From positions 1 to 64,000 of IMG/VR virus record IMGVR_UViG_3300028920_000038: a stretch of DNA of 64,000 nucleotides; one strand, given 5' to 3'. The notes below the pieces were generated by a model, which saw only the letters and a list, made by a program, of their open reading frames with translations, was not told the origin of the DNA and did no database searches. Origin of the DNA: a virus. Shown here one piece after another: positions 25,666 through 61,909 of the stretch (positions within the stretch are counted from its first letter, which is position 1; each line of letters begins with the position of its first letter). A program made the position numbers and the translations under genes.

Positions 25666-25926
25666 ATGAAATGTGTTTCTAGCTTAAGTGAAATTAAAGC
25701 AGGTATGTTTTTAGAATTTTCTACAATTCATTTTAAGTCTTGGTCAATTAAAGATTCATTTTATATAGTAAAGGTGCTATGGGTTAAGCCTGAAAAGAAT
25801 ACTATGTACGCTAAATTATATAAACCAGAAAGTAGAAAAGGAGATAGAAGCTATTTCTTTATTTATAATCCGATTCCTATTCAAATTCTCAAAAGAGATG
25901 ATGTTATTATAGAGCATTTACTATGA
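25666..25926 (+). CDS. Small SH3-like protein with shared C-terminal motif
   Basis: IKAGMFL...; ends KRDDVIIEHLL*. Confidence 0.65.
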   Translation: MKCVSSLSEIKAGMFLEFSTIHFKSWSIKDSFYIVKVLWVKPEKNTMYAKLYKPESRKGDRSYFFIYNPIPIQILKRDDVIIEHLL

Positions 25927-26097
25927 AAAAAGAAGAAGAATTATTAATAGAGATTAACCAGAATTTAAAAAAGAACATCCAATTATTAGAAAAATATCTC
26001 GAAGCTATGGAAGAATTAAGAAATCTAAAAGTTGGGGATATTATATTGGATACATTAAATGCAATCAGATTACTCGAACAGTATCTGGAGAAACAGA

Positions 26098-26343
26098 ATG
26101 ATAAAGAAAAGATATAAAGTTGGAGATAAATTTGTTTATACAAATCCCCTTCATCTAGTAGTGGGTATCATAACCGAGGTAGAATATCTAGATGAAGGAG
26201 GAGGATATATTTATTTTGAATCTATATACGCCTCAAGTCATCCAAGTGGTAGAGCATATACGGATAGGTTTGAAGTGGATAGTCCTATGTATAAACATTC
26301 TTATATACTTACTGAAGATGAATACCGAATGATGGTACTTTAA
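26098..26343 (+). CDS. Small SH3-like protein with shared C-terminal motif
   Basis: YKVGDKF...; ends TEDEYRMMVL*; start trimmed from the track ORF. Confidence 0.65.
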   Translation: MIKKRYKVGDKFVYTNPLHLVVGIITEVEYLDEGGGYIYFESIYASSHPSGRAYTDRFEVDSPMYKHSYILTEDEYRMMVL

Positions 26344-26481
26344 AGGAGGTGAAGTTATGAAAGCCAAGATAGATAAAAAGATTTGTAAGCATTGTGATTT
26401 TTCTGATAAGGGAAATCAAAATATATGTGTATCAAAAATACTAGGTGGGAATTGTAGATTTGATAAGTAGAGGAGATTCTA

Positions 26482-26706
26482 ATGATTAGAATTATGAGAG
26501 GAAAAATCTACAAATTTAGAGTGAATTGTAAATCACCAGCTAGTAAATTTAAAAAGGGAGAATTATTAAAGATAATTACAATAAATGAATCTTATGTATA
26601 TGGAATAGTAGTTGATAGAAACCAATCATTTTATATTAAAAAGAAATACTTTGATGAGTTTGTGCAACACGCTACAAGAGATGAAAAAATAATAGCAAAA
26701 TTATGA
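26482..26706 (+). CDS. Small SH3-like protein with shared C-terminal motif
   Basis: FKKGELL...; ends TRDEKIIAKL*. Confidence 0.65.
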   Translation: MIRIMRGKIYKFRVNCKSPASKFKKGELLKIITINESYVYGIVVDRNQSFYIKKKYFDEFVQHATRDEKIIAKL

Positions 26707-26874
26707 GGAAATATAAATGGTAAAAACTGGAGATATATTAAAAGTAAAAGGTAAGAATGTTACCGTTAAAGGAATATACGAATCTCTTGATAAGAGATTT
26801 ATAATAGAGTGTGAAACAAAATCCAAAAAGAAAGTAACTCTTATCGAAGGCGATGATGAGTATGAGGATTAAAA

Positions 26875-27465
26875 ATGATAAAAAAATATTTTGATTTTTC
26901 AATTAGATATTCACCAACAATAGAGGGGTGTGAAAGTTTAGCATTTTTTAGAAGTTGGGATGGAGATGTATATTATTATGAATTTATAGATAAGGAGAGA
27001 ATGAGGGTTTATACCAATAGAGATTTTGTGGGTAGAATAATTGAAAGAAAAGATTTGAAAAGTTTGAAATATTATATACGCAAAGTTTGGAATAAAAAGA
27101 TAACGAGATACAAGCCAAAGAAAAATTCTGTTCTTGAAATTTTAAGACCATATGCTATTCACAAATTACCAATCGCTATGGAGAGTTCAAGAGTATTAGG
27201 TTACTCTCATCCTAGAGAATGTTTAGCTTATACTAAAACCCCTAATTCAATTGTGATGTTTTTTAGAAAGAGAGGAGGAATACTTGCTTATCATATAGGA
27301 GCAACTTGGTATTCAAGTATGTTTGAAGGGTGGAGATGCTATCAATTAACTCTATCAGAAGGATTAAAAATACTCAAAGAATTTGAGGAATTTGATATTC
27401 CAATTTATCTACCAGAGAAAGTTGAATATGAAATACAATCAAAAATATTTATGGAAAATCTATAG
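26875..27465 (+). CDS. Hypothetical protein
   Basis: ORF track; ends SKIFMENL*. Confidence 0.7.
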   Translation: MIKKYFDFSIRYSPTIEGCESLAFFRSWDGDVYYYEFIDKERMRVYTNRDFVGRIIERKDLKSLKYYIRKVWNKKITRYKPKKNSVLEILRPYAIHKLPIAMESSRVLGYSHPRECLAYTKTPNSIVMFFRKRGGILAYHIGATWYSSMFEGWRCYQLTLSEGLKILKEFEEFDIPIYLPEKVEYEIQSKIFMENL

Positions 27466-27481
27466 GAGGAAATGAAGAAGT

Positions 27482-28612
27482 ATGGCTGTATTAGAAGTAG
27501 ACCATAAAGAGCTAGAGCAGTTTATTGAACTGCACTACGAGAATCACCTGTCCTTATTTATATGGGGAACAACAGGTATAGGAAAATCTGAAACAACAGA
27601 TAGAAAGGCTGAAGAATTAGCAGAAAAATATGATAGGAAATATGTACGGTGGAATGAACTAACTGAAACACAGAAGAAAGATTTGGAAGCTAATCCAGAA
27701 AAGTATTTTGTGTTTATGGATATACGTTTATCTCAAATGGACCCAAGTGATTTAAGAGGTATTCCTGCCTTAAATGGAAAGAGTACAGTTGAATGGAAAA
27801 AACCATTCTGGCTTTACGTAGCATCACTTGAGAAAATGAGAGGTGTAATATTCTTTGATGAAATTAATCTAGCACCTCCAAGTATTCAAGCATCTGCTTA
27901 TCAGTTGATTCACGACAGAGCATTAGACACTTTAAAATTATCTGATGGTATGGGAGTAATAGCTGCAGGAAATAGAGCAGAAGATAAAGCACAAGTTTAT
28001 GATTTATCAAAGCCTCTACAGAATAGGTTTGACCACGTTACATTAGCAATTCCTAGGTATGAGGATTGGACAGATTGGGCATTATCACACGGTGTTGATA
28101 CTCGGATTATTGCTTTTATAAATACTCGACCAACTCTGCTTATGGGAAAACTAGACGGTAACAAACATGATATGGCTTTTCCAACACCAAGAACTTGGGG
28201 AAAGAATTGTAGCAGATTGATAAAAGGAGTTAAAGATTTGAATGTACTAGAATCTCTTTCAGCTTCTGCTGTTGGTCTAGGTGCAGCATTAGAGTTTGCA
28301 TCATTCCTAAAGTTTGAGAGGAAAATTAATTTGCAGGATATTCTTAAACATCCAGAATCCTCAAAAGATATTACAGAATTGGATATGCAATACTGCTTAA
28401 TATCTTTGCTAACTGAATGGTATGGACAACATCACAAGAAAGAAGACTTGGCTAAAGTGTTAGAAGTATCTAATCATATTCAACCTGAATTAGCAATCCA
28501 GTTATTAAGATTTGTTAAGGGTAGACATCCAACATCATTCCGTAGAGATGCACCTAAATTACCAATCTGGAAAACTATCTGGGATAAATATGGGAAATAC
28601 TTTGAAGTCTAA
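27482..28612 (+). CDS. MoxR-like AAA+ ATPase
   Basis: Walker A GTTGIGKS, Walker B IFFDEIN, IAAGNR, NRF, PTPRTW. Confidence 0.9.
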   Translation: MAVLEVDHKELEQFIELHYENHLSLFIWGTTGIGKSETTDRKAEELAEKYDRKYVRWNELTETQKKDLEANPEKYFVFMDIRLSQMDPSDLRGIPALNGKSTVEWKKPFWLYVASLEKMRGVIFFDEINLAPPSIQASAYQLIHDRALDTLKLSDGMGVIAAGNRAEDKAQVYDLSKPLQNRFDHVTLAIPRYEDWTDWALSHGVDTRIIAFINTRPTLLMGKLDGNKHDMAFPTPRTWGKNCSRLIKGVKDLNVLESLSASAVGLGAALEFASFLKFERKINLQDILKHPESSKDITELDMQYCLISLLTEWYGQHHKKEDLAKVLEVSNHIQPELAIQLLRFVKGRHPTSFRRDAPKLPIWKTIWDKYGKYFEV

Positions 28613-28931
28613 ATCTAGAAAGGTTGTTAAATACTTTGGAAAAAGAAGTTGTGAAATTATAGATATAGATACAAGTAAGTCCATAATTTATTTCATGTGG
28701 TCAGTTCCAGATACTTTAGTGGGAATGTGGATAGTGAATAAAAATGTAATGTTATGTTATGATACTAGACATAATACTTATTACATAATTAAACGAAATG
28801 TAGAACACTATCTTGATTCTGATAAAGGTGAAGATTCAGAAAAACATACTTGGGAATATTGGTGGGATGAAACAGATAGTTTAGAATACATTGAATTATT
28901 AAAACCATATGTAAGAAGTGAATATCTATGA
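28590..28931 (+). CDS. Hypothetical protein
   Basis: Track ORF trimmed to the ATG at 28590. Confidence 0.55.
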   Translation: MGNTLKSKSRKVVKYFGKRSCEIIDIDTSKSIIYFMWSVPDTLVGMWIVNKNVMLCYDTRHNTYYIIKRNVEHYLDSDKGEDSEKHTWEYWWDETDSLEYIELLKPYVRSEYL

Positions 28932-29242
28932 AAAAAGAAGTAGTAGTTTGTGATGTGTGTGAACGAGGAATAGCAACTACCAAATGTCCTATATGTGGAA
29001 AGGATGTTTGTCCAGAATGTTCTGAATTATTAAAGTTTTATTCGTATCAAGAATATGGAGGAACTTCTTTGAAAGTATCTACAACTAAATCATTATTACA
29101 TAAGTTTAATCAAAGCACTTGGATGTGTAAAGATTGTGCAAAGGTTTTAGATAAATTCATAGAACTAGATGTTCCCAGTGAAGAATTTCTAATTGAACTA
29201 CTAAAATTTTTAAAGGAAAGAATAAGAATTGAAATATTATAA
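28928..29242 (+). CDS. Zn-finger protein
   Basis: CDVC, CPIC..DVCPEC, CKDC; ends ERIRIEIL*. Confidence 0.7.
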   Translation: MKKEVVVCDVCERGIATTKCPICGKDVCPECSELLKFYSYQEYGGTSLKVSTTKSLLHKFNQSTWMCKDCAKVLDKFIELDVPSEEFLIELLKFLKERIRIEIL

Positions 29243-30543
29243 TGGAGGAAACTATGGCTAAATTAACACCAATGGAAAGATTGATTCAAGCAAGAATGAG
29301 ATTACAAAAAGAAAAACCATTCTTTAGTTACTTGACAATGCACCTTAAATTAAGAGAAGATAAAACAGATGAATTGGCTTGTGGAAGTATGGGGGTATCA
29401 TCAGACGGTGAATGTATATTCTCTCCTGACTTTGTTACATCATTAAGTGATGAGGAATTAAAAGGGGTTCTATGTCATGAAGTAATGCACTGTGCATTAG
29501 AGCATCTTGTTAGAATTGATAATAGGAATCCTAGTATTTGGAATGCCTCTGTAGATATAGTAGTTAATAATATGTTAGTTAAAGACGGATTGCATTTACC
29601 TAAAGATGGATTAGTTCCATATCAAAATGAAATACAATTACTAGAGAAACATATTAAAAACATAAGTGAGAAATCTGCAGAAGAAATTTACGATGAAGTT
29701 TATTCTGATATAAGAAAGAAACTTGATAAGGTTCAAAAGAAACTACAGGATTATATTAATGAACACAAAGATGAACTGCAGGGATTCGATGAGCATTTAG
29801 GAGAAGGTTCAGGAGATGACAAGGATTCTAAAAAGAAACAGAAACAAAATAAATTAGGTCAGGGTAATTCCTTAAAGGGTAAGCTTGGTAAAAAGGAATC
29901 AAAGAATTGGAAAAAGATTTTAGTAGATGCTGTTACCTTTGCTAAACAAAGAGGACAATTACCTGCAGGAATGGAAAGGCTTGTAGATAAAGTGCTTGAA
30001 ACTCATATCGATTGGAAAGCATTACTATACAAGTATATTACTAATCAAATACCTATTGACTATAACTGGACTAAACCTTCTAAACGTTCATTCTCTACTG
30101 GAGTATATATGCCAGGTGTTGAGAAAGAGAAGATAGATATAGTAGTATCAATTGATACTTCAGGTAGTATATCAGATGATGAGTTGAGTGAATTTTTATC
30201 AGAGGTAATTTCCATTATAAGGCGATTTAAAAATGTGGATTTAACTTTAATAAGTTGTGATAGTAAAATACATAATGTACAAACATATAAGAATGCAACC
30301 ATAGATGATGCTCTTGATTTTAAATTATCTGGAAGAGGAGGTACTTCTCATGTACCTGTTTACAGATGGATATTAGAAAATATGCCTCAAGCAAAATTAC
30401 TAATTAACTTCACAGATGGATACACAGAATTTCCAGATAGTAGAGATGTTAATGTAAAATCATTATGGGTTATATGTGGATACAGTAGAAATTTGGAAAT
30501 ACCATTCGGTGAAGTGATAGAACTACCAGCAAGAGGAGATTAA
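29242..30543 (+). CDS. Metallopeptidase-like (HExxH) + vWA domain protein (DUF2201-type), MoxR partner
   Basis: HEVMH; MIDAS DTSGS, GRGGT, FTDG. Confidence 0.9.
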   Translation: MEETMAKLTPMERLIQARMRLQKEKPFFSYLTMHLKLREDKTDELACGSMGVSSDGECIFSPDFVTSLSDEELKGVLCHEVMHCALEHLVRIDNRNPSIWNASVDIVVNNMLVKDGLHLPKDGLVPYQNEIQLLEKHIKNISEKSAEEIYDEVYSDIRKKLDKVQKKLQDYINEHKDELQGFDEHLGEGSGDDKDSKKKQKQNKLGQGNSLKGKLGKKESKNWKKILVDAVTFAKQRGQLPAGMERLVDKVLETHIDWKALLYKYITNQIPIDYNWTKPSKRSFSTGVYMPGVEKEKIDIVVSIDTSGSISDDELSEFLSEVISIIRRFKNVDLTLISCDSKIHNVQTYKNATIDDALDFKLSGRGGTSHVPVYRWILENMPQAKLLINFTDGYTEFPDSRDVNVKSLWVICGYSRNLEIPFGEVIELPARGD

Positions 30544-31461
30544 ATGAAAGATGAAATAAATGAAAGGTTAGAAGAATTAACTGCAGAACAAGCAGAATTA
30601 CAGGAAGAAATCAAAGCGATAGCTAAAGAGAAAAAAATAGAAATAAAAAATATATTAAGAAAAAAATGCGATTATAAAAAATCAGAGAGGATAAAGAAGT
30701 TAGCTGAAATATATTTTGGTTATAAAAAGGATGAGAGAAAAGAAGATTTTATGTCTCTTGATTCTAGATTATTTCATTTGTATAGTAAGACATTTGATAG
30801 AATAACCAGTAAGAGAATAGTAACAAAGTATACTTTAGAATCAGCTTCTAGATATAGCAGAAATCAAACTATCACCAGAAAAATAGTTTTAAATAAAAAA
30901 GGAATTGGATATCTACAAGAGGGATACTATTGGGGTGATGAGAATAGAACTCATTATTTAGAATCAGCTTCAATGCTTATGACAATAATTAATACATTTC
31001 CTAAATTGCATCTGAAATTAAATAATCCTGTTAAAAGAGAGTTAATGAAAAAGTTTATGAAGATTGCAAAAGGTTATGTAGCAACTGCAGATTTCGAAAT
31101 TATAGAAGAAAGTTCTTCTGTAAATATTACATCGTATATTCCAGAAAGCTCTTACGATTTACCTAGTTCATTCGGTGTATCTAGGGTAGATTCAAAAACA
31201 TTTGATTTAGTTGAATTAACAGATACATATGGAAGATTAACTTTTAGATTTAAAAGTGTTAATGGATACGGTTCTCATGATGTAGACCTTATGGAAATTA
31301 AACCAGAGGATGAACATATTCTAAATCAATTACCTAGTGATATTATAGAAGCACTGGAAGATTATGTTATAAAAAGAGGTAATTCCTATAAGAAAAATAA
31401 AGAGATACTTGAAAAATTAGAAGAGGAAATGAGACCTTATATAATGATTGGAGATTTATAG
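30544..31461 (+). CDS. Hypothetical protein (305 aa)
   Basis: N-terminal coiled coil; ends RPYIMIGDL*. Confidence 0.75.
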   Translation: MKDEINERLEELTAEQAELQEEIKAIAKEKKIEIKNILRKKCDYKKSERIKKLAEIYFGYKKDERKEDFMSLDSRLFHLYSKTFDRITSKRIVTKYTLESASRYSRNQTITRKIVLNKKGIGYLQEGYYWGDENRTHYLESASMLMTIINTFPKLHLKLNNPVKRELMKKFMKIAKGYVATADFEIIEESSSVNITSYIPESSYDLPSSFGVSRVDSKTFDLVELTDTYGRLTFRFKSVNGYGSHDVDLMEIKPEDEHILNQLPSDIIEALEDYVIKRGNSYKKNKEILEKLEEEMRPYIMIGDL

Positions 31462-31464
31462 ACT

Positions 31465-31911
31465 ATGAGAAAAAAGATAGGAAATGTATTAGTTAATGTT
31501 ATTAAGAATGGAATTAGATATAAACACTCTCATCCAATATGGGGTATATTAAGTTCGAGTGATAGATATTATACAACAGGTAGCAATCCTAAATATTTTT
31601 ATATAGATTTCAATATACCTAGTCATGAAATTAATTATATATTGTCTAGAGATTTAGCAAGTATACTAATTGAAAACATAACAGTTTGTGAAAGATACCG
31701 TAAACAATTTAAATCCCAACCTGCTTATTTTAAATATTCTATACCAACGCATTTTGATGAAGCAGAAGGGATATTAAATAAACTTAAAAAACTAACGATT
31801 GTTCTTGAAGAAGTTGATAGGAATAATAAGAAGATAGATTACACTGTTAAATTTGAATTTACAAAGGATATTAAATTTATGAAAGATGAATACATTATGG
31901 CGATGTTATGA
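31465..31911 (+). CDS. Hypothetical protein
   Basis: Ends MKDEYIMAML*. Confidence 0.7.
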   Translation: MRKKIGNVLVNVIKNGIRYKHSHPIWGILSSSDRYYTTGSNPKYFYIDFNIPSHEINYILSRDLASILIENITVCERYRKQFKSQPAYFKYSIPTHFDEAEGILNKLKKLTIVLEEVDRNNKKIDYTVKFEFTKDIKFMKDEYIMAML

Positions 31912-31947
31912 AGAAAAAGAAAGTGCCAAATGAAATTGTGATTATAT

Positions 31948-32873: not shown

Positions 32874-32874
32874 T

Positions 32875-34171: not shown

Positions 34172-34459
34172 ATGGATAGACATATTGTAAATAATATATG
34201 CAGGATCTTAAGAAAACAATTCGATTCTTTAAATATTCTTAATAAAGGATACTACATAAAAGGATTCAATAAATACGGTTTGTCATTTGTAATTCATGGT
34301 TATGGATTAAAGTCAGAACCATTTGAAGTGAAGATAATTAAATATGCTCATCATAATTCTGATTACTTTGAATATAATAAACAGTTCTATGATTACAAAG
34401 AGTTTGAGGATTATATTAAAAATCAACTTAAAACAGATTTAATAATGTTAGACCTATAG
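34172..34459 (+). CDS. Small protein with shared C-terminal motif
   Basis: Ends LKTDLIMLDL*. Confidence 0.6.
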   Translation: MDRHIVNNICRILRKQFDSLNILNKGYYIKGFNKYGLSFVIHGYGLKSEPFEVKIIKYAHHNSDYFEYNKQFYDYKEFEDYIKNQLKTDLIMLDL

Positions 34460-34467: not shown

Positions 34468-34734
34468 ATGAAAAAATATCTAGAGAAATATAAGAAATTT
34501 ATAGGAAAAACTTGTATATATTATCCAAAGTATTTTGATGGTCCATTTATAATTAAATTTACAAGATTAGATAAAGTTGAGGATGAGTGTTATATTCACT
34601 TTATAATTATGAAAGGAGATTATATGTATGTTAATAAAAATGATAAATATAATTGGAGAGTAGATAGATTAGAAGATGGCTCCAAGAAATTTAGAGTTTT
34701 AAAGAAAGATGAAATTATGATGGAAATGTTATGA
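34468..34734 (+). CDS. Small protein with shared C-terminal motif
   Basis: Ends KKDEIMMEML*. Confidence 0.65.
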   Translation: MKKYLEKYKKFIGKTCIYYPKYFDGPFIIKFTRLDKVEDECYIHFIIMKGDYMYVNKNDKYNWRVDRLEDGSKKFRVLKKDEIMMEML

Positions 34735-34997
34735 GTAAAAAAGAAGTTAATTTAAAAAAGAGACAATATAAATATAAGATTGGCTCTATTATAAGATTTG
34801 GACCCGATTTAAGTTGGTATGATAGAATTAGAAATAAGATAGAAATAGGAGATTTAGGTATTGTCATAAGTGTAGATAATTATGGTCCTGTAAAAAATTG
34901 TAAAGTTAAGCATTTAAAATCAGGAAGTTTAGGATGGTTTAATAAAAACAATATGAGATTAGTATCAAAAGAAGAGGCTATTATGGAGTCATTATAA
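34731..34997 (+). CDS. Small SH3-like protein with shared C-terminal motif
   Basis: YKIGSII...IGDLGIV; ends SKEEAIMESL*. Confidence 0.65.
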   Translation: MSKKEVNLKKRQYKYKIGSIIRFGPDLSWYDRIRNKIEIGDLGIVISVDNYGPVKNCKVKHLKSGSLGWFNKNNMRLVSKEEAIMESL

Positions 34998-35191: not shown

Positions 35192-36327
35192 TGGAATGTC
35201 CATTTGATTTAGAAAATAAAAACCAAGTAATTGAATTTGAAGAAGTTGATCCATATAATCCAGAGAATATACTAAAAGGATATGTCAATAGAAGACAAGG
35301 TCAATTGTATGGATCATTATGGATTACTCATGTTAATGGAATAGAATGTCCTCAATTAATTTACTCTGCTCCAAAACAACATTATCCATTTGATAAATCT
35401 TTTAAAGATGAAAAAGTTTACAAGTTTCCTGAATATGATTGGATAGAAATATATGAGAAGTTGGATGGAACTTGTATCATATCTTATGTATATAAAGATT
35501 CTAATGGAACTCCATTTCTTACTTTCAAAACAAGATTAAGACCATTCCTTGGTACAAGCCAATATGGTAACTTCTTTCAATTGTGGAATGAAATGATAGA
35601 TAAGTATGATACTATTATGAGTACTTGTTTCAATGAGATGTATAATTTTGTATTTGAATTGTATGGAAAGAGAAATAAAATCCTGATTGATTATGATATT
35701 CCACTTGATACTAAACTAATATTTATGATTGATACTAAACACGGTACTATAATACCGTCAAGTTGGTTTGGTGATGATGAAGGATTTCCAGTATTAATTG
35801 GATGGGAAGAGGATTTAACTAATGAAGAAAAGGATTATTTAGAATGGCAAAGTCGATTAGAAAATTCACTAGAGATAGATGAAGAAAATAAAATAATGAA
35901 AGGCAAAGAAGGATTAGTATGGTATTTTATTAAGAATGGAGGAGCAGTTCAAATAAAATGTAAACCTCCTTCTGTGCTAAAGTATCACTGGTCAGGTGAT
36001 GCTATTCCTTATGAATCTATTTATACTACAGTATACAACGCATTCGAGAATTTTGATAAGCCAACTTATGAGGATATAGTTGAGTTATTAAAAGAAGAAT
36101 TTGAAGAAGGAAAGATAGATAAATCAAGAGTAAGAATAGAAAAAACTTTAGGAAGATTATTGTTTGATAAAAAGTATCAACATAGATTAGCTAAAGATTA
36201 TAAAGAACAGGGGTTTGATATTAATAAAGATAAAGCAGAATGTATGAGATGGTTTGGAAAGAACTATCCTAAATCAGAAGCTAAAAGAATATATCGACTT
36301 CTTAAACAATACGAGGAAGCAGGATGA
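35191..36327 (+). CDS. ATP-dependent RNA ligase (Rnl1/Rnl2-like nucleotidyltransferase)
   Basis: Motifs EKLDGT (I), FELYG (III), EGLV (IV), KCK (V); no OB domain. Confidence 0.8.
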   Translation: MECPFDLENKNQVIEFEEVDPYNPENILKGYVNRRQGQLYGSLWITHVNGIECPQLIYSAPKQHYPFDKSFKDEKVYKFPEYDWIEIYEKLDGTCIISYVYKDSNGTPFLTFKTRLRPFLGTSQYGNFFQLWNEMIDKYDTIMSTCFNEMYNFVFELYGKRNKILIDYDIPLDTKLIFMIDTKHGTIIPSSWFGDDEGFPVLIGWEEDLTNEEKDYLEWQSRLENSLEIDEENKIMKGKEGLVWYFIKNGGAVQIKCKPPSVLKYHWSGDAIPYESIYTTVYNAFENFDKPTYEDIVELLKEEFEEGKIDKSRVRIEKTLGRLLFDKKYQHRLAKDYKEQGFDINKDKAECMRWFGKNYPKSEAKRIYRLLKQYEEAG

Positions 36328-36617
36328 AGAAAATAAGAACTGTAGTTCAAAAGAAAGTAGAATTAAATATATTAACATGTAGATCAGATTTCAAGAAAGG
36401 TATGTATGTTAAGTTTGTAAATGATGAGTACCCTGAATATGGCCAAGTAATTCTAATTGGGGATTCGGAATTTGTTGTAAAATGGGTTTTGAGACCAGGA
36501 GATTCATATAATTATTATAGAGAATTTACCGCGTATGAATTCAAAGAATTAGGAGAAGATGGTGGATATATAGTAATTAAAGCCAATAGAGATGATATTA
36601 TAATGGAGAAACTATGA
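36324..36617 (+). CDS. Small SH3-like protein with shared C-terminal motif
   Basis: FKKGMYV; ends NRDDIIMEKL*. Confidence 0.65.
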   Translation: MKKIRTVVQKKVELNILTCRSDFKKGMYVKFVNDEYPEYGQVILIGDSEFVVKWVLRPGDSYNYYREFTAYEFKELGEDGGYIVIKANRDDIIMEKL

Positions 36618-36901
36618 ACGAAGAAGAGAAGACGATTGTAGATCTCATTAAAAAGAAAGGAATAAAATACATTAAATTTTTAAGAGATTGTGCTTCAATG
36701 GCAGCAGAATTTAATAAAGGTGAAGTGGTTGAAATTGTAGAGATATTTAGTCATGAACCTTTACATGGAGATGATCCTTCAGAAGTTAGATTAAAAATTA
36801 AATCTATAGACGGAACTAGGGATGGAAATTTAAAAATAACTAGATTCAAAGATTATTATGATTTTCCGACTAAAGACGAAATAAGGTTAGAGATTTTATG
36901 A
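36614..36901 (+). CDS. Small SH3-like protein with shared C-terminal motif
   Basis: FNKGEVV; ends TKDEIRLEIL*. Confidence 0.65.
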   Translation: MNEEEKTIVDLIKKKGIKYIKFLRDCASMAAEFNKGEVVEIVEIFSHEPLHGDDPSEVRLKIKSIDGTRDGNLKITRFKDYYDFPTKDEIRLEIL

Positions 36902-37110
36902 AATTTAAAATTGGAGATTACGTTAGAATATCAAATGAATTAGGAGGAGTTATAACTTCAACTCATAGAGATAGAGTGGGTAAGATTATATTCTTATCCG
37001 AATCTCCAGTTCCATATTATAAGGTAAGATTTTATGATGAAGATTGGGTATTTTTTGAAGGGGAACTTTTAAAGTCAAATAAAGATGAATATTTAATGGA
37101 GGTGTTATAA
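36898..37110 (+). CDS. Small SH3-like protein with shared C-terminal motif
   Basis: MKFKIGDYV; ends NKDEYLMEVL*. Confidence 0.65.
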   Translation: MKFKIGDYVRISNELGGVITSTHRDRVGKIIFLSESPVPYYKVRFYDEDWVFFEGELLKSNKDEYLMEVL

Positions 37111-37721
37111 TGGAAATATATATCAGTCCAGGCAATAGACGAATGGACATACCGACATTCAGCTTACCAGCAGTTAAGACATGTCCAGGATCCACAGAAT
37201 TATGTAAGAAGAATTGCTATGCACTTAAAGCTGAAAAGGTTTGGAAAGGTCCTAAACAATCAAGGAATAGAAACTACGATATAAGTATGACAAAAGAATT
37301 TGTGGATAAGATGATTCATAAAATATCAAAAAGTAACAAAGAATATTTTAGAGTACACGAATCAGGAGATTTTTATTCACAGGAGTATTTAGATAAATGG
37401 ATAAAGATATTTGAAGAATTTAATATAGAGGATAAGAAAAAGAAGTTCTTAATATATACACAGAAATATGATTTAGATTATTCTAAACTTCCAAGTAATG
37501 TAATTCTCTATTGGACAATATGGCCTGATACAGATATAGATAAAGTACCAGAAGGTTTGAGAGCTTATGTTATTGATGACGGAACTGGTAAGATTCCAGA
37601 GAATACTTATATAATTAATGAGCCAAAGATCTGTAAGAAGGGTAAAGGTTCTAAATTAAAATGTGATGACTGTATGTATTGTTATGAAGGCAGAGGTGAT
37701 GTAGTATTTATCCTTCATTAA
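37110..37721 (+). CDS. Gp88-like (radical-SAM-related Fe-S) phage protein
   Basis: FSLPAVKTCPG....CKKNCYA, FRVHESGDFY, YT, C-terminal C..C..C. Confidence 0.75.
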   Translation: MEIYISPGNRRMDIPTFSLPAVKTCPGSTELCKKNCYALKAEKVWKGPKQSRNRNYDISMTKEFVDKMIHKISKSNKEYFRVHESGDFYSQEYLDKWIKIFEEFNIEDKKKKFLIYTQKYDLDYSKLPSNVILYWTIWPDTDIDKVPEGLRAYVIDDGTGKIPENTYIINEPKICKKGKGSKLKCDDCMYCYEGRGDVVFILH

Positions 37722-37954
37722 GATTTAGAATATTTAAATTAAAAGATGTCAGAATTAAAAAGATAACAAAATCTGGAGATGTATTTTATAGATTATATCT
37801 CAAAAGAAGATTTATACCTATCTGGTTATATGATAGTTCAGAAGTTAGATTAGAACATATTATTTCTAGTTACAAACGAAAGATGAAAGAGATACAGCAT
37901 CCTACGAAATCGGAATGGATTCCAAGAGAAGAGCTTTTGATTGATGAACTATAG
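37706..37954 (+). CDS. Unannotated 82-aa ORF, probable ATT start; shared C-terminal motif
   Basis: Open frame after a TGA; GAGGTGA at 37693-37699, 6 nt before ATT; ends PREELLIDEL*. Confidence 0.5.
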   Translation: MYPSLRFRIFKLKDVRIKKITKSGDVFYRLYLKRRFIPIWLYDSSEVRLEHIISSYKRKMKEIQHPTKSEWIPREELLIDEL

Positions 37955-38031: not shown

Positions 38032-38541
38032 ATGAAAACTAAGTATTATCATTCTAAAACAATTAGAACCGATGGATATAAATCTCAACCAGAGTATGAT
38101 GAATTGATATCTGATTTAGATATATCAAGTCTACGGTTCTTGAAGCAGAAAAAACAGAAAGACATTAATGAATTTAGAAGTACACATGATTTGAATAATC
38201 CAGAATATGCTGAAAAATATAAAGTAATGCAACAGCAATTTGTAATGATAACTCAAGAAATAAAACACCGTCAAGTGTTTAATGAATCATCTAAAGAAGA
38301 AGAATGGTACGATCCAGAGACAGGCTTTATCATAGATGAACATGGGAATTATAAAGGAGCTGTATATTATGATGAGAATGAAGAATCTATGGTATATAGT
38401 AATTCAGAAGATAATGTAGAATCAGTTAGTTTTGAAGAAGAAGATGAAGATGAGTTTGATTATCAATATGCAGATAAGGATTTAAAAGATTCTAAAATGT
38501 CCTGGGAAGATTGGTGTAAAGAAAAAGGATTACAAAAATAA
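38032..38541 (+). CDS. Acidic hypothetical protein
   Basis: AGGAG SD; D/E-rich C-terminal half. Confidence 0.75.
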   Translation: MKTKYYHSKTIRTDGYKSQPEYDELISDLDISSLRFLKQKKQKDINEFRSTHDLNNPEYAEKYKVMQQQFVMITQEIKHRQVFNESSKEEEWYDPETGFIIDEHGNYKGAVYYDENEESMVYSNSEDNVESVSFEEEDEDEFDYQYADKDLKDSKMSWEDWCKEKGLQK

Positions 38542-39116
38542 TGAGAAAAACTACAGATGATGGAAGAATAATAATAACTAAAAGAGGAAAAGAAATATCC
38601 AAATCTTCTTATAGTAATTGGGATTTGTGGAAACTTTCTAAAGATTTAAATAAAGATGAATTGAGTATGTTAATTACTTTAAGAAAAAATTACCTAAAAC
38701 ATACAGAAGATCCAGAAATGATAAGAGGTTATAGAAGGGATATTCTTATATTAGAAGATGCATATAAAATAAAGAGCAGGGAAGAAATAGGAATATACAG
38801 TAAATCAGATTATTCAGAATCCTATTGGCATGAAGATTTAGATGAGTTATCTTCTCTAGCTGTTTGTATGATTAATAAATTAGGTTACACACAAAATACT
38901 TTATATAAAGAGAATGCTTTAAATATTAGCAGGCGAATAGAATTAGAGGGAGATAAAGAATTAATAGCAGCCTGTATAGTAAAGAATATATTAGATTATT
39001 ACGAATCAAAATTTGATATAAATTACATATTAAAATTGTATAGTATCAACGAACCAGATTTTTATAAGACCTATATTGAGTGTAATCGTTGGTGTTCAAA
39101 GCACTACTGGAGTTAG
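38541..39116 (+). CDS. Hypothetical protein, C-terminal half resembles a TFB cyclin repeat
   Basis: INKLGY...ALNI...GDKELIAACIV...KFDINYILKLYSINEPDFYKTY resembles the TFB IAAA.LY...TQ.EIA....VTE.TI...Y pattern (by eye only). Confidence 0.35.
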   Translation: MRKTTDDGRIIITKRGKEISKSSYSNWDLWKLSKDLNKDELSMLITLRKNYLKHTEDPEMIRGYRRDILILEDAYKIKSREEIGIYSKSDYSESYWHEDLDELSSLAVCMINKLGYTQNTLYKENALNISRRIELEGDKELIAACIVKNILDYYESKFDINYILKLYSINEPDFYKTYIECNRWCSKHYWS

Positions 39117-39225
39117 ATTTTTTTAGTACATAAAAAATTATTGTAGAGTGTGCTATGCAAATTGATTAGATTTAATACGTAAAATATGTAAAAAAAAAAA
39201 GAAAACAAAAAAAGGAGAAAAAATA

Positions 39226-39915
39226 ATGGCTGAAATAATAAGCGAAGATATGTTTGGTGACATCCTAAAGAGTGGACCATCGCAATTCATTTACCCTCCT
39301 AAAGAGGGAGAGCCAGAGATTGTAGTAGTATTTCAATCGAGTATATCAATTACGAATCCTGGCGATGAAGATGTGTTGGGTAAGATTTGGGATCCACCAA
39401 CAGAAGATGCAAACGGAAATCCAATTATAGATAAGTTCGGACCGAATAAAGGGAACCCTATGCAACCTTGGGCTAAAGTAGAAGCACAGGTTACTAAAGG
39501 AGGCTCTCCTAGTGTACTTACTTTTGGAAGAAAGAACGGAGCATTCCTTAGAGAATTTGGTATAAAGATGAATGAAGAAGATATTACCAACCAAGATCTT
39601 AAAGGAACCAAATGGTCTATACAAAGGACTGGAAGGTATAATTGGTCAATCGAATATCTAGGAAGGGAGGAGTCTGACTCCTCTACTCCTAAAGAAGAGA
39701 AGAAAGAAAATAAGGATTTAGAAAGTATAAAATCAAGTTTAGTTAGTTTAAAATCTGGAAATCCAGATGTAGCTAAAGGTGTAGATAAAAACCAACTTAT
39801 GCAAAATTTGGTATTCATAACTGGATTAAAACCTGATGCAATTAAAAGTAATTGGGATAAACTAATTAAAGAGAAAATTATAGAAGAAAAAGACAACACA
39901 GTTAAGGTGCTATAA
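39226..39915 (+). CDS. Hypothetical protein, possible ssDNA-binding protein (beta domain + linker + C-terminal helical domain)
   Basis: First gene of the recombination cluster; architecture reminiscent of RPA32-like proteins. Inference only. Confidence 0.35.
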   Translation: MAEIISEDMFGDILKSGPSQFIYPPKEGEPEIVVVFQSSISITNPGDEDVLGKIWDPPTEDANGNPIIDKFGPNKGNPMQPWAKVEAQVTKGGSPSVLTFGRKNGAFLREFGIKMNEEDITNQDLKGTKWSIQRTGRYNWSIEYLGREESDSSTPKEEKKENKDLESIKSSLVSLKSGNPDVAKGVDKNQLMQNLVFITGLKPDAIKSNWDKLIKEKIIEEKDNTVKVL

Positions 39916-40141
39916 TGGCAAATGTAAAATCACCTTGGGATACTAAATTCCTAAGAGAGACTCCTTTCATAGCATTCGGATCTATGATGAATGCATATGG
40001 TAGAATGAATGAAGGTAAAGAAATCACTCCAGAGGAATTTGAGAAGATAGCCAATAAATTATTCCAAATCGCTAAAGGATATGCAATAGCTGCATTCGGT
40101 GCTGCATCTACAGATGATGAAGTAGACCTACCTGTGAAACA

Positions 40142-47707: not shown

Positions 47708-48101
47708 GTGAAGAAGAAAGAACTTGTAGAGAATGCGGAGAACCGTTAGAAGATTACGAAGAAGATCTATGCGAAGACTGTAGAAATAATTTAGCATCAG
47801 CTATATTTAATACGGATGAAATAGACAATGAATTATTTTAATATACTGGTTTGTATCGGAGGAGTTACTCTTATAGCTTATTTATTAGCTAATAAGATGA
47901 GACATATGATGAGTCAAGTAAGATTATTTAAAACTGTTACTAAAGGCGGAGATCCAGAAGATCTTCCAGATAAAGAAGAATTACAAAATTTAATTATGAC
48001 TGTAGCTAAACAGCTACACAAAAAGAAAGAAGAAGAAAAGAAAGACGGAAATAGAGGAATGTACGGTTAATGTTATTTAGCTATAAAGAGGTATAACTGA
48101 T

Positions 48102-50429
48102 ATGAAGTTGGAGCCTATTAGCGAGTTATTAGATTATAATTTTGATAAAGACTCTCTTATATACATAAGTGATGATCATTTTGTATATGGAGAGGAATTA
48201 GACGAAAGTATAATTAAAGATATAAAAGACCATACCATTCAGATATATACTGGATATTATATCCATGAAAAAGGATGGAAGAGTCCTAAGATATATCTGT
48301 TGGGGAGAGGTAAGAATTCAGGTAAAGTTAAATTGAAGATACAGAATTTCAAACCTTATTGTTATATTAAAGCGGATGATGGAGATTATAAGGATTACCT
48401 TGGTAATAAATGTAAACAAATGATCTTCGAAACTCATCCATCAAGAATAAAATTCTATAGAGAAAGGCGTAGGAAATCTCATTATCCATTACCATATGAA
48501 GCAGACATTCTCTTCGTGAGGAGATTCCTCTGTGATGTGTATGATTATTTCAAACCTAAAGAAAAGATACAACCTAGAATAGCTATCATAGATATTGAAA
48601 CAGACTATCCAGTTAGTGAAGATATTATAGCATGGTCTATTAATGACATGGAAGGAGATATTGTTTATAGATCAAAGTTTGATGGTTTGTCATCAAAAGA
48701 ATTATCCCTGGAATTATATAACAGATTATTAGAATACGACGTAGTAACTGGATGGAACATCAATTTCGATATGGAAGAATTACAAAAACAACTAGATAGA
48801 TTTGGAACAGATAAATATATAATAGCCAATGAAATAGCAAAGATAGATTTATTAATTATATCGAAAAAGATGTATGCAAAGGAAATAAAAGGAAACTGGT
48901 CATTGGATAATGTTGGTAAGAATATTTGTGGATTAGATAAAATCCATATTGGATCCAAACAGATAAGAGATTTAGATGAGCAAGAGTTATTAGAGTATAA
49001 CGTGAGAGATAGTATCATACCTGAGATCATAGATAATGTACTTGGAGGTTTAGAAGGACATTTGATTCTATCATGGAGTCTTCAATGTATATTAGATGAT
49101 ACTACTATAACAGCAGTTGTAAATGATATAGCTCTATTAAGAGCATATCACAGAGCTGGTATAGTATTACCTTCAAGAGATTATAGTAAAGATAAATCAA
49201 AGGAAGCTAAATATAAAGCAGCAGAACCTGATGCTAGACCTGGTGTCTATAGGGAAGTAATAGCCACTGATCTTGAACATGCATACCCATCTGCTGTAAT
49301 TGCTAAGAATATATCACCAGAAACTAAGGATCCAAATGGAGTTCATGAGACTCCTAATGGAATTAGATTTAATGATAAGCATAGTGTATTTATAGATACC
49401 CTTAAAGAGATCATGATAGATAGAGGAAAAATTAAGAGTGAAATGAATAAGTTGGATCCTAAAACTGAAGAATGGAAGAAACTTAAATCTATTGATTTTG
49501 CTTTGAAGACACAAGCAGCAGCATTTAGTCATGGTATATTTGGATGGTCTAATAGCAGAATGAAAGATTATGAAGTGGCAGATTCTATTACAGCAGTTGT
49601 AAGAGATTTGATAGATACAATCAAAGAAGCTTGCGATGTAATTGGAAGACCTTGGATATATGCTCATACAGATTCAGCTTATATAAATGCACCTAAATCT
49701 GAGAAAGAAAAGATAATGAATTATCTAAATAATATCATAGAAGAGCATTGTAAAGGATATCTAATTACTCCAAAATTAGACTATAAAAAATATTATAAAG
49801 TGACTTATATACATTCACCTGCCAGAAATGTCATGGTCCCAGAAGATGTGGGTATTGATGATGATGAAGAATGGGATGTAACTGGCATGAATTTTATGAG
49901 GTCAGAAACAGCAGAACCTCTTGGTAGAATAGAAATAGATTTAATAAAGATGCTATTCAAGAAAAGATCTAAAGATAGTATTTTAAGTGAATTAAAGAAT
50001 AGAATTAAAGATTTGATAAATGAAAATTCAACAGAACTCGGAGTAATAAAACCCTTAAACAAATCAATTAGTGAATATGGAAAATTAAAAAAGGATGGAG
50101 ATATGGGAGGAATTCCATACCATATTAAAGCTTTAAAGAGAGCTAATCGTGAATATGGATATTCTGTCAATGTTGGTGAGAAGTTTATGATAATTCCTAT
50201 ATATACTGATGAAACAGAAGGAGTTAGAGTTATTAGAAGAAAGAAGATATTTATGGCATATGATATAGAAAAAGGTTTACCAGATAAATATGTAATAGAT
50301 TATGAAACATATTTAAGATCAAACTTATGGGGTAAAATAAATAATATATTTGATGTATCTCCTAAGGAATTGGAGAAATGTGTTATGACAGATGATGTAA
50401 AATCTGCATTATTTGCAGGTATAATATAG
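48102..50429 (+). CDS. polB: Family B DNA polymerase with variant motifs
   Basis: Exo DIET / GWNINFD / YNVRD; motif A DLEHAYPS; motif B KTQAAAFSHG; motif C YAHTDS. Confidence 0.92.
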   Translation: MKLEPISELLDYNFDKDSLIYISDDHFVYGEELDESIIKDIKDHTIQIYTGYYIHEKGWKSPKIYLLGRGKNSGKVKLKIQNFKPYCYIKADDGDYKDYLGNKCKQMIFETHPSRIKFYRERRRKSHYPLPYEADILFVRRFLCDVYDYFKPKEKIQPRIAIIDIETDYPVSEDIIAWSINDMEGDIVYRSKFDGLSSKELSLELYNRLLEYDVVTGWNINFDMEELQKQLDRFGTDKYIIANEIAKIDLLIISKKMYAKEIKGNWSLDNVGKNICGLDKIHIGSKQIRDLDEQELLEYNVRDSIIPEIIDNVLGGLEGHLILSWSLQCILDDTTITAVVNDIALLRAYHRAGIVLPSRDYSKDKSKEAKYKAAEPDARPGVYREVIATDLEHAYPSAVIAKNISPETKDPNGVHETPNGIRFNDKHSVFIDTLKEIMIDRGKIKSEMNKLDPKTEEWKKLKSIDFALKTQAAAFSHGIFGWSNSRMKDYEVADSITAVVRDLIDTIKEACDVIGRPWIYAHTDSAYINAPKSEKEKIMNYLNNIIEEHCKGYLITPKLDYKKYYKVTYIHSPARNVMVPEDVGIDDDEEWDVTGMNFMRSETAEPLGRIEIDLIKMLFKKRSKDSILSELKNRIKDLINENSTELGVIKPLNKSISEYGKLKKDGDMGGIPYHIKALKRANREYGYSVNVGEKFMIIPIYTDETEGVRVIRRKKIFMAYDIEKGLPDKYVIDYETYLRSNLWGKINNIFDVSPKELEKCVMTDDVKSALFAGII

Positions 50430-56560: not shown

Positions 56561-56605
56561 GGTTTAAATAATGTATGTAAGAAATGTTATAAATTTATAT
56601 GAAAA

Positions 56606-59466: not shown

Positions 59467-59946
59467 ATTATTTAAAAGAAACAAAAAAGAAATTATTGAT
59501 AAAGAAGAATCAAAATATCCGATTAAACTTATTAATGAATATGTTAATAAATATATATATGTAGATTATATAGATTTAGATATACCCAAAAACTTTGAAG
59601 GCACTTTATTATTCGAATCAACAGACCAAGGATTTTATATGGGTAATCCAGAGAATTACTATTTAATATGTTGGGATTGGAAAAGTCCAGTATCTGGAAA
59701 AGAGCAAAGATCTTATATAGTATCTATAAAAGATTCTGAAGGAAATCTTATTTGGAGAAGAGATGATTAAATGGCTTCGATGAAATATGCGGGATTACGC
59801 CATTGTCTATCATGCCTATATAGATATCAATGTGAAAGAACTATTAAATCTATAATGAGGGAAGGATGTAATTTATATCTCGGTGATGATAAAATTGTTG
59901 CAGATGGAGATGATTGAATTCCATTTTGATATGAATAGGAGAAAAT

Positions 59947-60306
59947 ATGGAGGAGATATATAAGATAGAATCGACTAATTATACATTAACTTTAAGAGCA
60001 ACTCATATTAAAGATAGATTTCCTATAGCTTATGCTTCTATAGAAATAGAAGATAAGGATGGATTAAAAATAGGAAAATTAGTAGGAATGATTAGAAGAC
60101 AGGAATTTAAAGGGATGGGAATATGCAAAGATCTTTTGATTGAAAGATTAAAATTATGTAGAATTCTAGGATGTGATAAGGCATATAGTGCAGTTTATTA
60201 TAAAAGAACTGGACTCATTAAATTATATAAAGAATTAGGATTTGAAGAGATAGAACCTTTATCTTCTGAATATGTTAGATTTGAAAAATTATTGAAAGAG
60301 GAATAA
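59947..60306 (+). CDS. GNAT acetyltransferase
   Basis: RQEFKGMGICKDL (motif A), LYKELGF. Confidence 0.75.
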   Translation: MEEIYKIESTNYTLTLRATHIKDRFPIAYASIEIEDKDGLKIGKLVGMIRRQEFKGMGICKDLLIERLKLCRILGCDKAYSAVYYKRTGLIKLYKELGFEEIEPLSSEYVRFEKLLKEE

Positions 60307-60307
60307 T

Positions 60308-60529
60308 ATGGTAGGATATAAGAATATATCAATCCCTGTACCGTTGTATGACCGATTAGAAAGTATGGCTAAGGAGAATAATTTTAAGAATATAAGGGCA
60401 TTCATAATACATTTAATAAGAGAAACTGTTTCTAGATATAATGCAGAAAAGGATGGAATATTCTTCCTAACTGATAATGATGAAGAGAAGATCAAGAAGA
60501 GATTAAAAGAATTAGGATACATGGATTAA
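60308..60529 (+). CDS. Ribbon-helix-helix (CopG-like) regulator
   Basis: YKNISIP..LYDRL.......FKNIRAFI..LIRE...IKKRLKELGY, an archaeal-type pattern. Confidence 0.75.
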   Translation: MVGYKNISIPVPLYDRLESMAKENNFKNIRAFIIHLIRETVSRYNAEKDGIFFLTDNDEEKIKKRLKELGYMD

Positions 60530-60986
60530 AAATGGCAGACGCTTGGTATCCAAAAGATGATGAAGATCAATGGGAATCTTGGTATCCCAAATGTCCTGCA
60601 TGTAAATCAAAGAATATTAAAGTGCTGGATGTATATAGAATTTCTTATGAATTAAATAGAGAAATTAGAAAAATGAGATGTGGAGATTGTAAAAATGAGT
60701 TCTGGGAATCGGAAGCCAGTTATTGAGAAATTAAAAAGAACTTGTTATGCATGTCCCAGTCAATGGGAAGGAAGAGATACAGAAGGTTATCCATATTATA
60801 TAAGATATAGATGGGATCACCTAACTGTGAGTAAGGGTAAAAGATATGGCCATATAGATACTGCAATAATGGCTGAGCCATATTTTTCAAAGACAGTTAA
60901 AGGAGATGGAATATCTGGAATCTTAGATTTTAATGAATTAAAGGAACAATTGAAATATACATTAGTAATTAAAGAGGAAATCGAAG

Positions 60987-61592
60987 ATGAAGATTACTTT
61001 GCTTGATTATACTGAAAATGGAATGAATAAAATAGCCAGAATGGCAAGAGCAACAAGATTGAATAGTTATGAGAATGGATTTGAATTAGATGAAACTAAA
61101 GATGATAAATTTGTTAAGAGATTAATAAGAGTGGGACATCTAGGAATTCTAGAACACATCTCCTTTACTTTTCATATATCAGAAGTGAGTAGGTGTTTAA
61201 CACATCAATTGGTAAGACATAGGATAGCATCCTATTTACAGATGAGTAATAGACATGCTAAGCCAGAGTTTCGTGGATATGTAACTCCAATTTCAATTAA
61301 TACTATAGAATATAAAGAATTCATGGATAATGCATATCTACTATACCGAGATATGATAGCAGATGGTTTACCTATAGAAGATGCAAGATATGTTTTACCA
61401 CCTGCATTCTTTACTCATATATCAGTAACTATGAATTGTAGAGAATTACTCCATTTCTTTGAATTGAGATGTGATAAAGCAGCTCAATGGGAAATAAGAG
61501 GAATGGCTTTAGAAATGTTAAAAATATGTTATGAAAAATATCCAGTGATATTTAAGGATATTTATGATAAGTACAAGAAGGATATAAAATGA
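60987..61592 (+). CDS. thyX: FAD-dependent thymidylate synthase
   Basis: H.GILEH, SR..THQLVRHRIASY.QMS.R, EDARYVLP, R....AQWEIR. Confidence 0.95.
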   Translation: MKITLLDYTENGMNKIARMARATRLNSYENGFELDETKDDKFVKRLIRVGHLGILEHISFTFHISEVSRCLTHQLVRHRIASYLQMSNRHAKPEFRGYVTPISINTIEYKEFMDNAYLLYRDMIADGLPIEDARYVLPPAFFTHISVTMNCRELLHFFELRCDKAAQWEIRGMALEMLKICYEKYPVIFKDIYDKYKKDIK

Positions 61593-61909
61593 ATTATACA
61601 TGGTCAACTACAACATCTAGTCATTGTGGAGATGGATCTAGTTATCACTTTTATTATGATAAACCATATAAGAATAAGCCAGCTACATGGGAAGATGTAT
61701 TTAAAATCAATTGGGATAAAATAAATCAAGTTCCTAAACCAGAAAAACCTACAGATATATTCAGTAGAGAAGAGACTATAATAACTAAAGATGGAGAATC
61801 AATATCATTAACTCTTGGAGAGTTATATGAATTGGAGAAACTTGGATTAGATCCAACAAAAATGACAAAGGAAGAATTAGAACAGCAATTATTAGCTATA
61901 AGGTTATAA
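61589..61909 (+). CDS. Hypothetical protein with shared C-terminal motif
   Basis: Ends TKEELEQQLLAIRL*. Confidence 0.6.
   Translation: MNYTWSTTTSSHCGDGSSYHFYYDKPYKNKPATWEDVFKINWDKINQVPKPEKPTDIFSREETIITKDGESISLTLGELYELEKLGLDPTKMTKEELEQQLLAIRL

Follow-up and report, generated by a model that had tools for sequence, protein, structure and literature searches.

Constant C-terminal ending of small proteins in an uncultured tailed virus: probably the terminal helix of one expanded protein family

Introduction

About a dozen small proteins encoded by an uncultured tailed virus (IMG/VR record IMGVR_UViG_3300028920_000038) share a C-terminal ending of the approximate form [KR]-[DE]-[DE]-x-hydrophobic-hydrophobic-x-x-L-stop, further referred to as the tail; its positions are counted backwards from the last residue (−1). 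The stretch studied here, the window, is the first 64 kb (64,000 nucleotides) of a single 137,847-bp virus contig with 220 crudely predicted open reading frames (ORFs) genome-wide. Several described systems come close to these proteins in one respect or another. The poxvirus ankyrin/PRANC families, which are F-box-like, comprise many paralogs in which the binding domain varies and a C-terminal docking motif stays constant. The tails of phage T4 proteins gp43, gp55 and gp33 and the archaeal PIP boxes are short C-terminal peptides that dock to one ring. Five-stranded SH3-like barrels are found in NusG, the Spt5 KOW domain, ribosomal protein L24, PsaE, NdhS and Tudor domains, and a small, uncharacterised phage-derived protein, YorP (PF09629), is encoded by SPbeta of Bacillus subtilis. 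Finally, SHOCT (PF09851) is a short, mostly C-terminal module of unknown function that occurs with many unrelated domains (Eberhardt et al. 2013, PMC3581485); experiments did not support its role in oligomerisation (PMC3581485).

The KOW and SH3-like domains have in common with the tail-bearing proteins the predicted five-stranded barrel. Moreover, the N-terminal F-x-x-G-D-x-V strand of the viral proteins is similar to the KOW signature, the identity by VIA reaches 27%, and ribosomal L24 gives weak profile matches (E 0.26–0.3). In contrast to the viral proteins, these domains have no terminal helix and are not known to occur as multiple tandem copies. YorP is the best fold match and also an ESM Atlas look-alike, but the match covers residues 1–63 and not the tail helix, and YorP is not known with this ending or in arrays. 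The second half of SHOCT has the same [IL]-[ST]-x-E-E-aromatic start as the tail. Two of the viral proteins weakly matched the SHOCT profile, the best with 11.4 bits (E 0.28) against a cut-off of 27, over profile positions 14–23 (10 of 28); the first SHOCT helix is absent from the tail, and SHOCT is mainly bacterial and does not form gene arrays. With the T4 clamp-binding tails and PIP boxes the viral tail shares an acidic-hydrophobic peptide at the extreme C-terminus, and the family-B DNA polymerase (PolB) of the virus has a tail-like end. The h-x-x-h-h spacing (h, hydrophobic) of the PIP consensus Q-x-x-[LIM]-x-x-[FY]-[FYWL] fits the tail, which however has no fixed Gln and ends with an aliphatic pair. 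The poxvirus families are an analogy only: they too combine many paralogs, fast-changing bodies and a constant short C-terminal element, but are unrelated in sequence and fold, and their hosts are animals, as opposed to bacteria or archaea here.

Results

The tail is probably an alpha-helix at the C-terminus of small proteins that belong to one expanded family, and not a tag attached to unrelated ones. The initial annotation had listed sixteen C-termini and described about 15 unrelated-looking proteins with a common ending. All sixteen are present in the sequence at the corresponding stop codons. Twelve or thirteen proteins are solid tail bearers, whereas those ending at 27465, 29242, 31461 and 61909 have in common with them no more than a hydrophobic end. 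The strict pattern [KR][DE][DE]x[h][h]xxL-stop occurs at 9 of the 220 termini of the genome, compared to 0.005 expected from the within-protein rate, and all these matches are situated between 25.2 and 46.5 kb. The block [KR][DE][DE] at positions −9 to −7, which is free of constraints from the Shine–Dalgarno (SD) sequence and the ATGA stop/start overlap of the next gene, was observed 8 times against 0.49 expected (P = 4.5e-8). When all 220 termini were scored with a position matrix derived from the tails of a related virus only, the window tails ranked at the top; the four weak ones are within the top 0.03–0.3% of internal windows, not beyond. A general tail pattern with 8–17 matches per locus in the contigs bearing the family had none in nine control viral loci, which come from eight other contigs and comprise about 280 genes. 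The enrichment, the matrix ranking and the empty control loci show that the core of the observation, about a dozen genes, is real. Terminal Leu as such is frequent (40 of 220 termini).

The bodies, in turn, proved to be mostly related rather than unrelated. An iterated hidden Markov model (HMM) search yielded a family of 36 members that unites ten tail bearers of the window; when aligned, these have a common N-terminal [FY]-K-[VI]-G-D strand. For body-only comparisons the last 12 residues were cut off. Leave-one-out body profiles placed seven of the ten members first or second among all other ORFs. A body profile trained only on another virus placed seven of the ten within the top 16 of 598 ORFs, with E-values of 4.6e-9 for 36898–37110, 9e-4 for 46257–46508 and 2e-3 for 36324–36617. 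These related bodies, the location of all members on the plus strand between 25 and 46.5 kb, and the overlapping stop and start codons in seven of them are features of a multigene family, with 10–13 copies here and 26–40 in a 155-kb relative. The family is absent from standard collections: scans of the window members and of a further array (contig L018, see below) against Pfam, PHROGs and NCBIfam yielded no significant family. A search of 1.84 billion representatives with the profile of a first 11-sequence alignment retrieved only the window's own proteins, all ten members being singleton clusters except for one start-site variant of 26482–26706; as the profile is too weak for a database of this size, this result is not proof of absence. 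With one member as the tblastn query, no match among 50,697 phage records had an E-value below 0.2.

The first of the ten members (25666–25926, 86 amino acids, aa) has a tail offset by one residue and ending in LL, and an ATGA overlap with the next gene; its leave-one-out body profile ranks it second among the ORFs not used for training. The member at 26059–26343 (94 aa, or 81 aa from a later start) belongs to the HMM family and has rank 9 of 598 (E 0.16) with the body-only profile trained on the relative. Its tail is not imposed by an SD sequence, because the SD of the next gene is located past the stop codon. The next one, 26482–26706 (74 aa), does not overlap the following gene and has no acidic residue at −3; in a body-only phmmer comparison it matched 36614–36901 with E 5e-4. 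The protein encoded at 34172–34459 (95 aa) is a member by the full-length profile, its body being missed by body-only profiles. It is followed by 34468–34734 (88 aa), which has an ATGA overlap and the best match to the tail matrix of the relative (21 bits), and by 34731–34997 (88 aa), which has a TAATG overlap and GGAG within codons −4/−3. Three more members overlap each other: 36324–36617 (97 aa), with an ATGA overlap, GGAG within codons −4/−3 and a leave-one-out body profile E-value of 5.5e-5; 36614–36901 (95 aa), also with an ATGA overlap and in the HMM family; and 36898–37110 (70 aa), the most typical one. The last member, 46257–46508 (83 aa), is encoded apart from the others in the replication module and has an ATGA overlap with no SD within the tail.

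The most typical member (36898–37107) was modelled with AlphaFold2 using the 35-sequence family alignment; it is the one member modelled. The predicted local distance difference test score (pLDDT) is 91.3 and the predicted template modelling score (pTM) is 0.78. The model has strands at residues 8–11, 27–34, 40–45, 48–52 and 57–59, which constitute a five-stranded antiparallel beta-barrel of the SH3-like/KOW-like type, and a helix at residues 62–69, which is the tail (pLDDT about 90). A terminal helix, as suggested by the initial annotation, is seen in the model of one member; for the window it would be the domain's own end rather than a tag on unrelated proteins. The best Foldseek match was YorP (2heq, SPbeta prophage; E 5.9e-3, TMq 0.68, 29% identity over 65 columns), and many SH3-like chains had TMq of 0.6–0.7. 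VIA Z-scores to the NusG/Spt5 KOW domains, NdhS and Tudor domains were 8.0–8.3, with a root mean square deviation of 1.3–1.5 Å over 52 residues. Z-scores of about 8 are not unusual for a common fold, and hence no function follows from them. All matches in a viral structure library were uncharacterised small phage proteins, and the ESM Atlas agrees. None of the 35 members reached the cut-off of any family of the Pfam SH3 clan, including KOW (PF00467), and none matched YorP (PF09629) at E up to 1; scattered weak Pfam matches were to BAH, SH3_15, GPKOW_C, PsaE, L24 and PWWP.

In the model, Asn61 immediately precedes the tail helix and is its likely N-cap. Position −10 is S, T or N in 6 of 11 members, and positions −8/−7 are acidic. 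Judging from the model and from general helix chemistry, the K/R-D-E residues would be the N-terminal cap and first turn of the helix; such a cap at −10 with acidic residues at −8/−7 would account for the part of the motif lying upstream of the SD. From the confidence values only, the helix appears to pack on the barrel.

The initial annotation had warned that the M-E-x-L part of the tail can be shaped by the SD and ATGA overlap of the next gene, and this effect was measured at positions −4, −3 and −1. Codons were counted in 27 family tails from this virus and the 155-kb relative whose stop codon overlaps the next start. At position −3 GAG is used 19 times and GAA three times (P = 5e-11; the genome-wide share of GAG is 20%). 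At codon −4, 17 of the 27 tails have G as the last base, compared to 14% for hydrophobic codons (P = 7e-9). Together, the two biases spell GGAG or GAGG. In the window, position −3 is acidic in six of eight overlapping members and in none of the three non-overlapping ones. Genes outside the family show a similar tendency: with overlapping stops, 30% end in Leu (vs 11%) and 44% have an acidic residue at −3 (vs 24%).

Other features of the tail do not follow the overlap. Glu at −7 is encoded by GAA in 15 cases and by GAG in six, which is genome-like usage. Leu or Ile at −1 is kept in the absence of an overlap, though Leu makes up just 13% of NNA codons. In the −9 to −7 block the replacements are conservative, namely AAA/AGA (Lys/Arg) and GAT/GAA (Asp/Glu). 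The tail is kept in members that have no overlapping gene, and in relatives the residues are conserved while synonymous codons vary. The enrichment did not vanish when the overlap was taken into account, and conservation in relatives extends from the SD nucleotides to the residues themselves. These observations support selection on the tail at the amino-acid level beyond the SD/ATGA constraint.

Relatives of the virus were reached via homologs of two genes located among the family members, those of the DUF2201 and GP88 proteins. The 155-kb contig (G001) is about 50% identical in both. Between 8.5 and 43 kb it has 26 profile matches plus about a dozen tail-only candidates, with tails typically of the form [ST]-x-x-E-x-F-[LM]-E-x-L. 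Two adjoining near-identical genes in this contig (12382–12881; L001 3129–3377 and 3377–3628) encode proteins of 82–83 aa with tail-like ends. They point to a recent tandem duplication in the relative, and since they are missed by the family profile, the copy counts are lower bounds. A 10.9-kb contig (L041) has GP88 and genes matching 38032–40145 in common with this virus. Its K-x-G-D bodies carry the canonical ending I-[ST]-K-E-E-[AV]-[FM]-x-E-x-L, of which the form of the tail in the window is thus a derived version.

A DNA pattern scan added the L018/L033 contig, which has no detectable gene in common with this virus in 22.6 kb. It contains at least 16 consecutive genes for proteins of 57–96 aa that start with M-K-Y-Y or similar and end with a near-invariant 11-residue tail. 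In these otherwise constant tails Ser is encoded by AGC, TCT and AGT, and Ala by GCC, GCT and GCG. Such free synonymous variation indicates purifying selection on the peptide rather than gene conversion. The first codons of the next gene are conserved in this array as well. The exact KEEAF-type tail pattern was found in IMG/VR only on the L018 contig. A profile of the L018 array retrieved 99 further small proteins, none with a Pfam domain, from JGI, ENA, Logan and Tara data, the sources being marine and sediment metagenomes. Since common tail words were the basis of their selection, these proteins are no measure of how conserved the tail is. The L039 array, whose selection did not involve tail words, retains the S/T-x-x-E cap with Glu at −7, Phe at −5 and the hydrophobic positions, and varies at the polar ones. 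Both body classes, M-K-Y-Y and K-x-G-D, are present in the 155-kb relative.

Contigs with family arrays also encode a Cpn60/thermosome-like chaperonin (L041 3890–5536) and a ClpP-family protease (L033 12071–12637), the latter being a candidate head-maturation protease. Outside the window, a 67-aa protein at 68302–68505 of the genome, in a region of glycan genes, has the family strand and the barrel profile (E 3e-9) and is tail-less.

Besides the ten members, several ORFs of the window end in the tail or resemble it; all are on the plus strand. A candidate extra member (24963–25214, 83 aa, GTG start, profile E 0.36), absent from the initial annotation, has a tail similar to that of an 88-aa protein of the relative. 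The open frame 37703–37954 ends in the tail and contains the K-x-G-D strand motif but has no ATG, GTG or TTG start. It is located directly 3' of the GP88 gene, in the −1 frame relative to it, and in the 155-kb relative an intact family member occupies this position, overlapping the GP88 stop codon. The match of 37703–37954 to the family profile is weak, and BLASTP with its positional counterpart is not significant. It is probably a decayed or unusually started copy; access by frameshifting could also be considered.

The 148-aa orphan encoded at 31465–31911 has a perfect tail and no detectable body similarity to the family, its hhalign match to the family profile being limited to the last 10 residues. 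As judged from sequence comparison, it would be the window's best case of the tail on another body. It had no homolog among 5.8 billion proteins and no similarity to its possible counterpart in contig L003. A single-sequence AlphaFold model of this protein (pLDDT 38) was discarded.

Four quoted endings turned out to be weaker. The 196-aa protein at 26875–27465, just upstream of the MoxR gene, belongs to another family and has tail-like last six residues. With its 207-aa ortholog in the relative (L001 6527–7150; BLASTP E 7e-13, ends aligned) it keeps the ending I-F-M-[EK]-N-[LI], which scores 8.1 bits with the tail matrix; it is not a family member. The 104-aa zinc-ribbon protein at 28928–29242 has just a hydrophobic-E-x-L end and is a weak case (3.1 bits). 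The 305-aa protein at 30544–31461 has a hydrophobic end alone and is unsupported as a tail bearer. In the 106-aa protein at 61589–61909 the end is a longer terminal helix in another register and not the same motif. This longer helix, [ST]-x-E-E-[LF]-x3-L-h-x-h-R-[LI]-stop, is also found in proteins of the relative at L015 5563–5805 and 4693–4890. Among the three, only one pair has weak similarity, that of 61589–61909 to an 81-aa protein over the last 37 residues (E 0.014).

The genome has a G+C content of about 30% and is 87% complete by CheckV. A comparison of sequencing runs showed that the viral DNA occurs almost entirely in one marine sediment metagenome, which may be its source; no RNA run was among the matching datasets. 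The T4-type large terminase is encoded on the minus strand (12389–13798) and is 26–28% identical to those of the ANME-1 virus ANMV-1 and Bacillus phages. From about 19.8 kb, a plus-strand block starts with many small genes followed by replication genes, namely those of PolB, a PriL-like primase subunit, RadA and ribonucleotide reductase. PolB (48102–50429, plus strand) is 23% identical to that of Halorubrum tailed viruses, the closest database phages being very distant, and its region has no blastn match in phage records. The distant relatives of the terminase and PolB together with PriL and RadA hint at an archaeal host. Among the family genes lie those for a MoxR-type AAA+ ATPase (AAA_5; 27482–28612, plus strand) and for the DUF2201 protein (29242–30543, plus strand). 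The latter combines a metallopeptidase-like domain (HExxH) with a VWA domain whose MIDAS motif, D-x-S-G-S, is intact. The gene of the GP88-family protein (37110–37721, plus strand) has family genes on both sides here and in relatives. The pair of MoxR AAA_5 and DUF2201 genes is conserved in distant marine virus contigs.

Discussion

In the window the tail bearers are mostly paralogs of one barrel family, and the tail is the terminal helix of the predicted domain. Shared descent thus accounts for most of the tail sharing, rather than separate tagging of unrelated effectors, and the modular system of effectors plus tag proposed by the initial annotation is not supported here. At least ten genes of the window would be diverged tandem or dispersed paralogs within a family of 57–110-aa proteins, each encoding an N-terminal [FY]-K-[VI]-G-D strand, an SH3/KOW-like five-stranded barrel and an end helix of about nine residues. 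The conserved residues would have three sources. The first is helix chemistry, with the S/T/N cap at −10, acidic residues at −8/−7 and hydrophobic ones at −5, −4, −2 and −1. The second is common descent under purifying selection at the amino-acid level. The third would be a nucleotide overlay in the seven stop-overlapping members, where codons −4/−3 spell the GGAG or GAGG of the next gene and codon −1 needs a final A to form ATGA; much of the M/L-E-x-L would arise in this way. The genes may be expressed in series by translational coupling in an early region. The fast-changing barrel could be the working (binding) surface, and the constant helix would cap the barrel and may also be a common handle.

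Several observations weigh against one family whose helix merely belongs to its fold. The tail is more conserved than expected of a helix that only packs on a domain (1.97 bits per column vs 1.25 in the body), and in the L018 array the tails are 81% identical while the bodies are 22% identical. Most of the matching SH3-like domains align to residues 1–63 only and have no such helix. The members at 25666, 34172 and 34468 were missed by the tail-less profile trained on the relative; leave-one-out body profiles ranked 25666 and 34468 second, weakly (E 0.04 and 0.5), and missed 34172. Hence, the membership of these three depends largely on the tail. With tails removed, the M-K-Y-Y and K-x-G-D classes have an hhalign probability of 0.1%, and the 148-aa orphan ends in the tail on a body unlike the barrel family.

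In a rival reading, which is compatible with paralogy and to which we assign a clearly lower probability, the constant helix would serve as a handle for docking, sorting or degradation and connect many variable small proteins to a single hub. High conservation of the tail with synonymous variation, and its presence on two body classes without detectable similarity as well as on the orphan, speak for such a handle, as does the lack of such a helix in most of the matching SH3-like domains. The hub candidates are MoxR with DUF2201, or a host clamp, protease or chaperone. In five contig lineages (G000, G001, L003, a Tara contig with 32–33% identity and the P0054 contig) the DUF2201 gene is no more than 10 kb away from family genes, with a MoxR-like gene alongside where checked; on the Tara contig a 32% identical MoxR counterpart adjoins family genes. 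The HExxH motif of DUF2201 is kept, and the D-x-S-G-S MIDAS is invariant across ten viral homologs. MIDAS motifs bind acidic ligand residues. On the other hand, the nine control loci without a tail all carry DUF2201, no family member is encoded by a relative that is 98% complete and has both DUF2201 and GP88, and four tail-rich contigs have no DUF2201 within the 10–31 kb in view. The co-location may be inherited gene order within one viral clade. Furthermore, the variation of polar tail positions in arrays not selected by tail words is what a packing helix would be expected to show. The literature searched on YorP/SPbeta and on DUF2201/MoxR contained nothing relevant to the tail family.

A clamp is another candidate for the hub. 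The C-termini of PolB (48102–50429; G001 46856–49378) resemble the tail: D-D-V-K is followed by L-F-x-x-hydrophobic-hydrophobic-stop, with Phe at −5, hydrophobic residues at −2/−1 and no overlapping gene. By its sequence, this end could be a candidate clamp-binding tail. At the same time, the 87%-complete genome yielded no Pfam match to PCNA, gp45 or the beta clamp. The 229-aa protein at 39226–39915 was considered as a clamp and rejected, as it had no PHROG match and its ESM Atlas look-alikes are not clamps. Other functions were dismissed by comparison with their familiar consensus features: a membrane-targeting helix, given the acidic tail; the HbYX proteasome motif, as there is no Tyr at −2; an ssrA-like degron, as there is no LAA-type end; and a prohead-protease site, since the removal of two residues seems pointless. 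It is unlikely, in our estimate, that an 11-residue helix plugs dozens of fast-evolving binders, SH3-like and of at least one other class, into one hub. If true, this would be an as yet undescribed system that joins variable binders to a constant handle and is widespread among uncultured tailed viruses of marine origin.

By comparison with a handle, a purely nucleotide origin fares poorly. Here a junction cassette of SD, spacer, ATGA and next start would be copied or gene-converted, the peptide being a by-product. The codon bias at −4, −3 and −1 tied to the overlap, the excess of terminal Leu and acidic −3 in overlapping genes outside the family, and the conserved first codons of the next gene in the L018 array are what such a cassette would produce. 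It does not produce the motif in members that have no overlapping gene, nor the conservative replacements in the −9 to −7 block upstream of the SD, nor genome-like codon usage for Glu at −7, and the free synonymous sites, with Ser encoded by both AGY and TCN, mean that the DNA is not homogenised. This reading is largely refuted and very improbable. Chance in an AT-rich genome, where codons for Lys, Asp, Glu, Ile and Leu abound, might be favoured by the frequency of terminal Leu, and the four weakest tails lie within its reach. For the core set it is refuted by the excess over internal peptide frequencies and by the empty control loci, and it has a negligible probability.

The preferred reading, that of one expanded family with its own terminal helix, has consequences for annotation. 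The family is large, widespread and unnamed, being absent from Pfam, PHROGs and NCBIfam, and combines an ordinary-looking fold with an unusually constant end. It further illustrates how part of a protein motif can be written by a downstream SD and ATGA overlap. In large phages and archaeal viruses there are blocks of small early genes that defy annotation, and here one such block is a single expanded family, so that defining it would annotate many hypothetical genes at once. As in diversified families of binders, a constant end is combined with a variable body, so that host-takeover or counter-defence proteins may reasonably be sought in this family.

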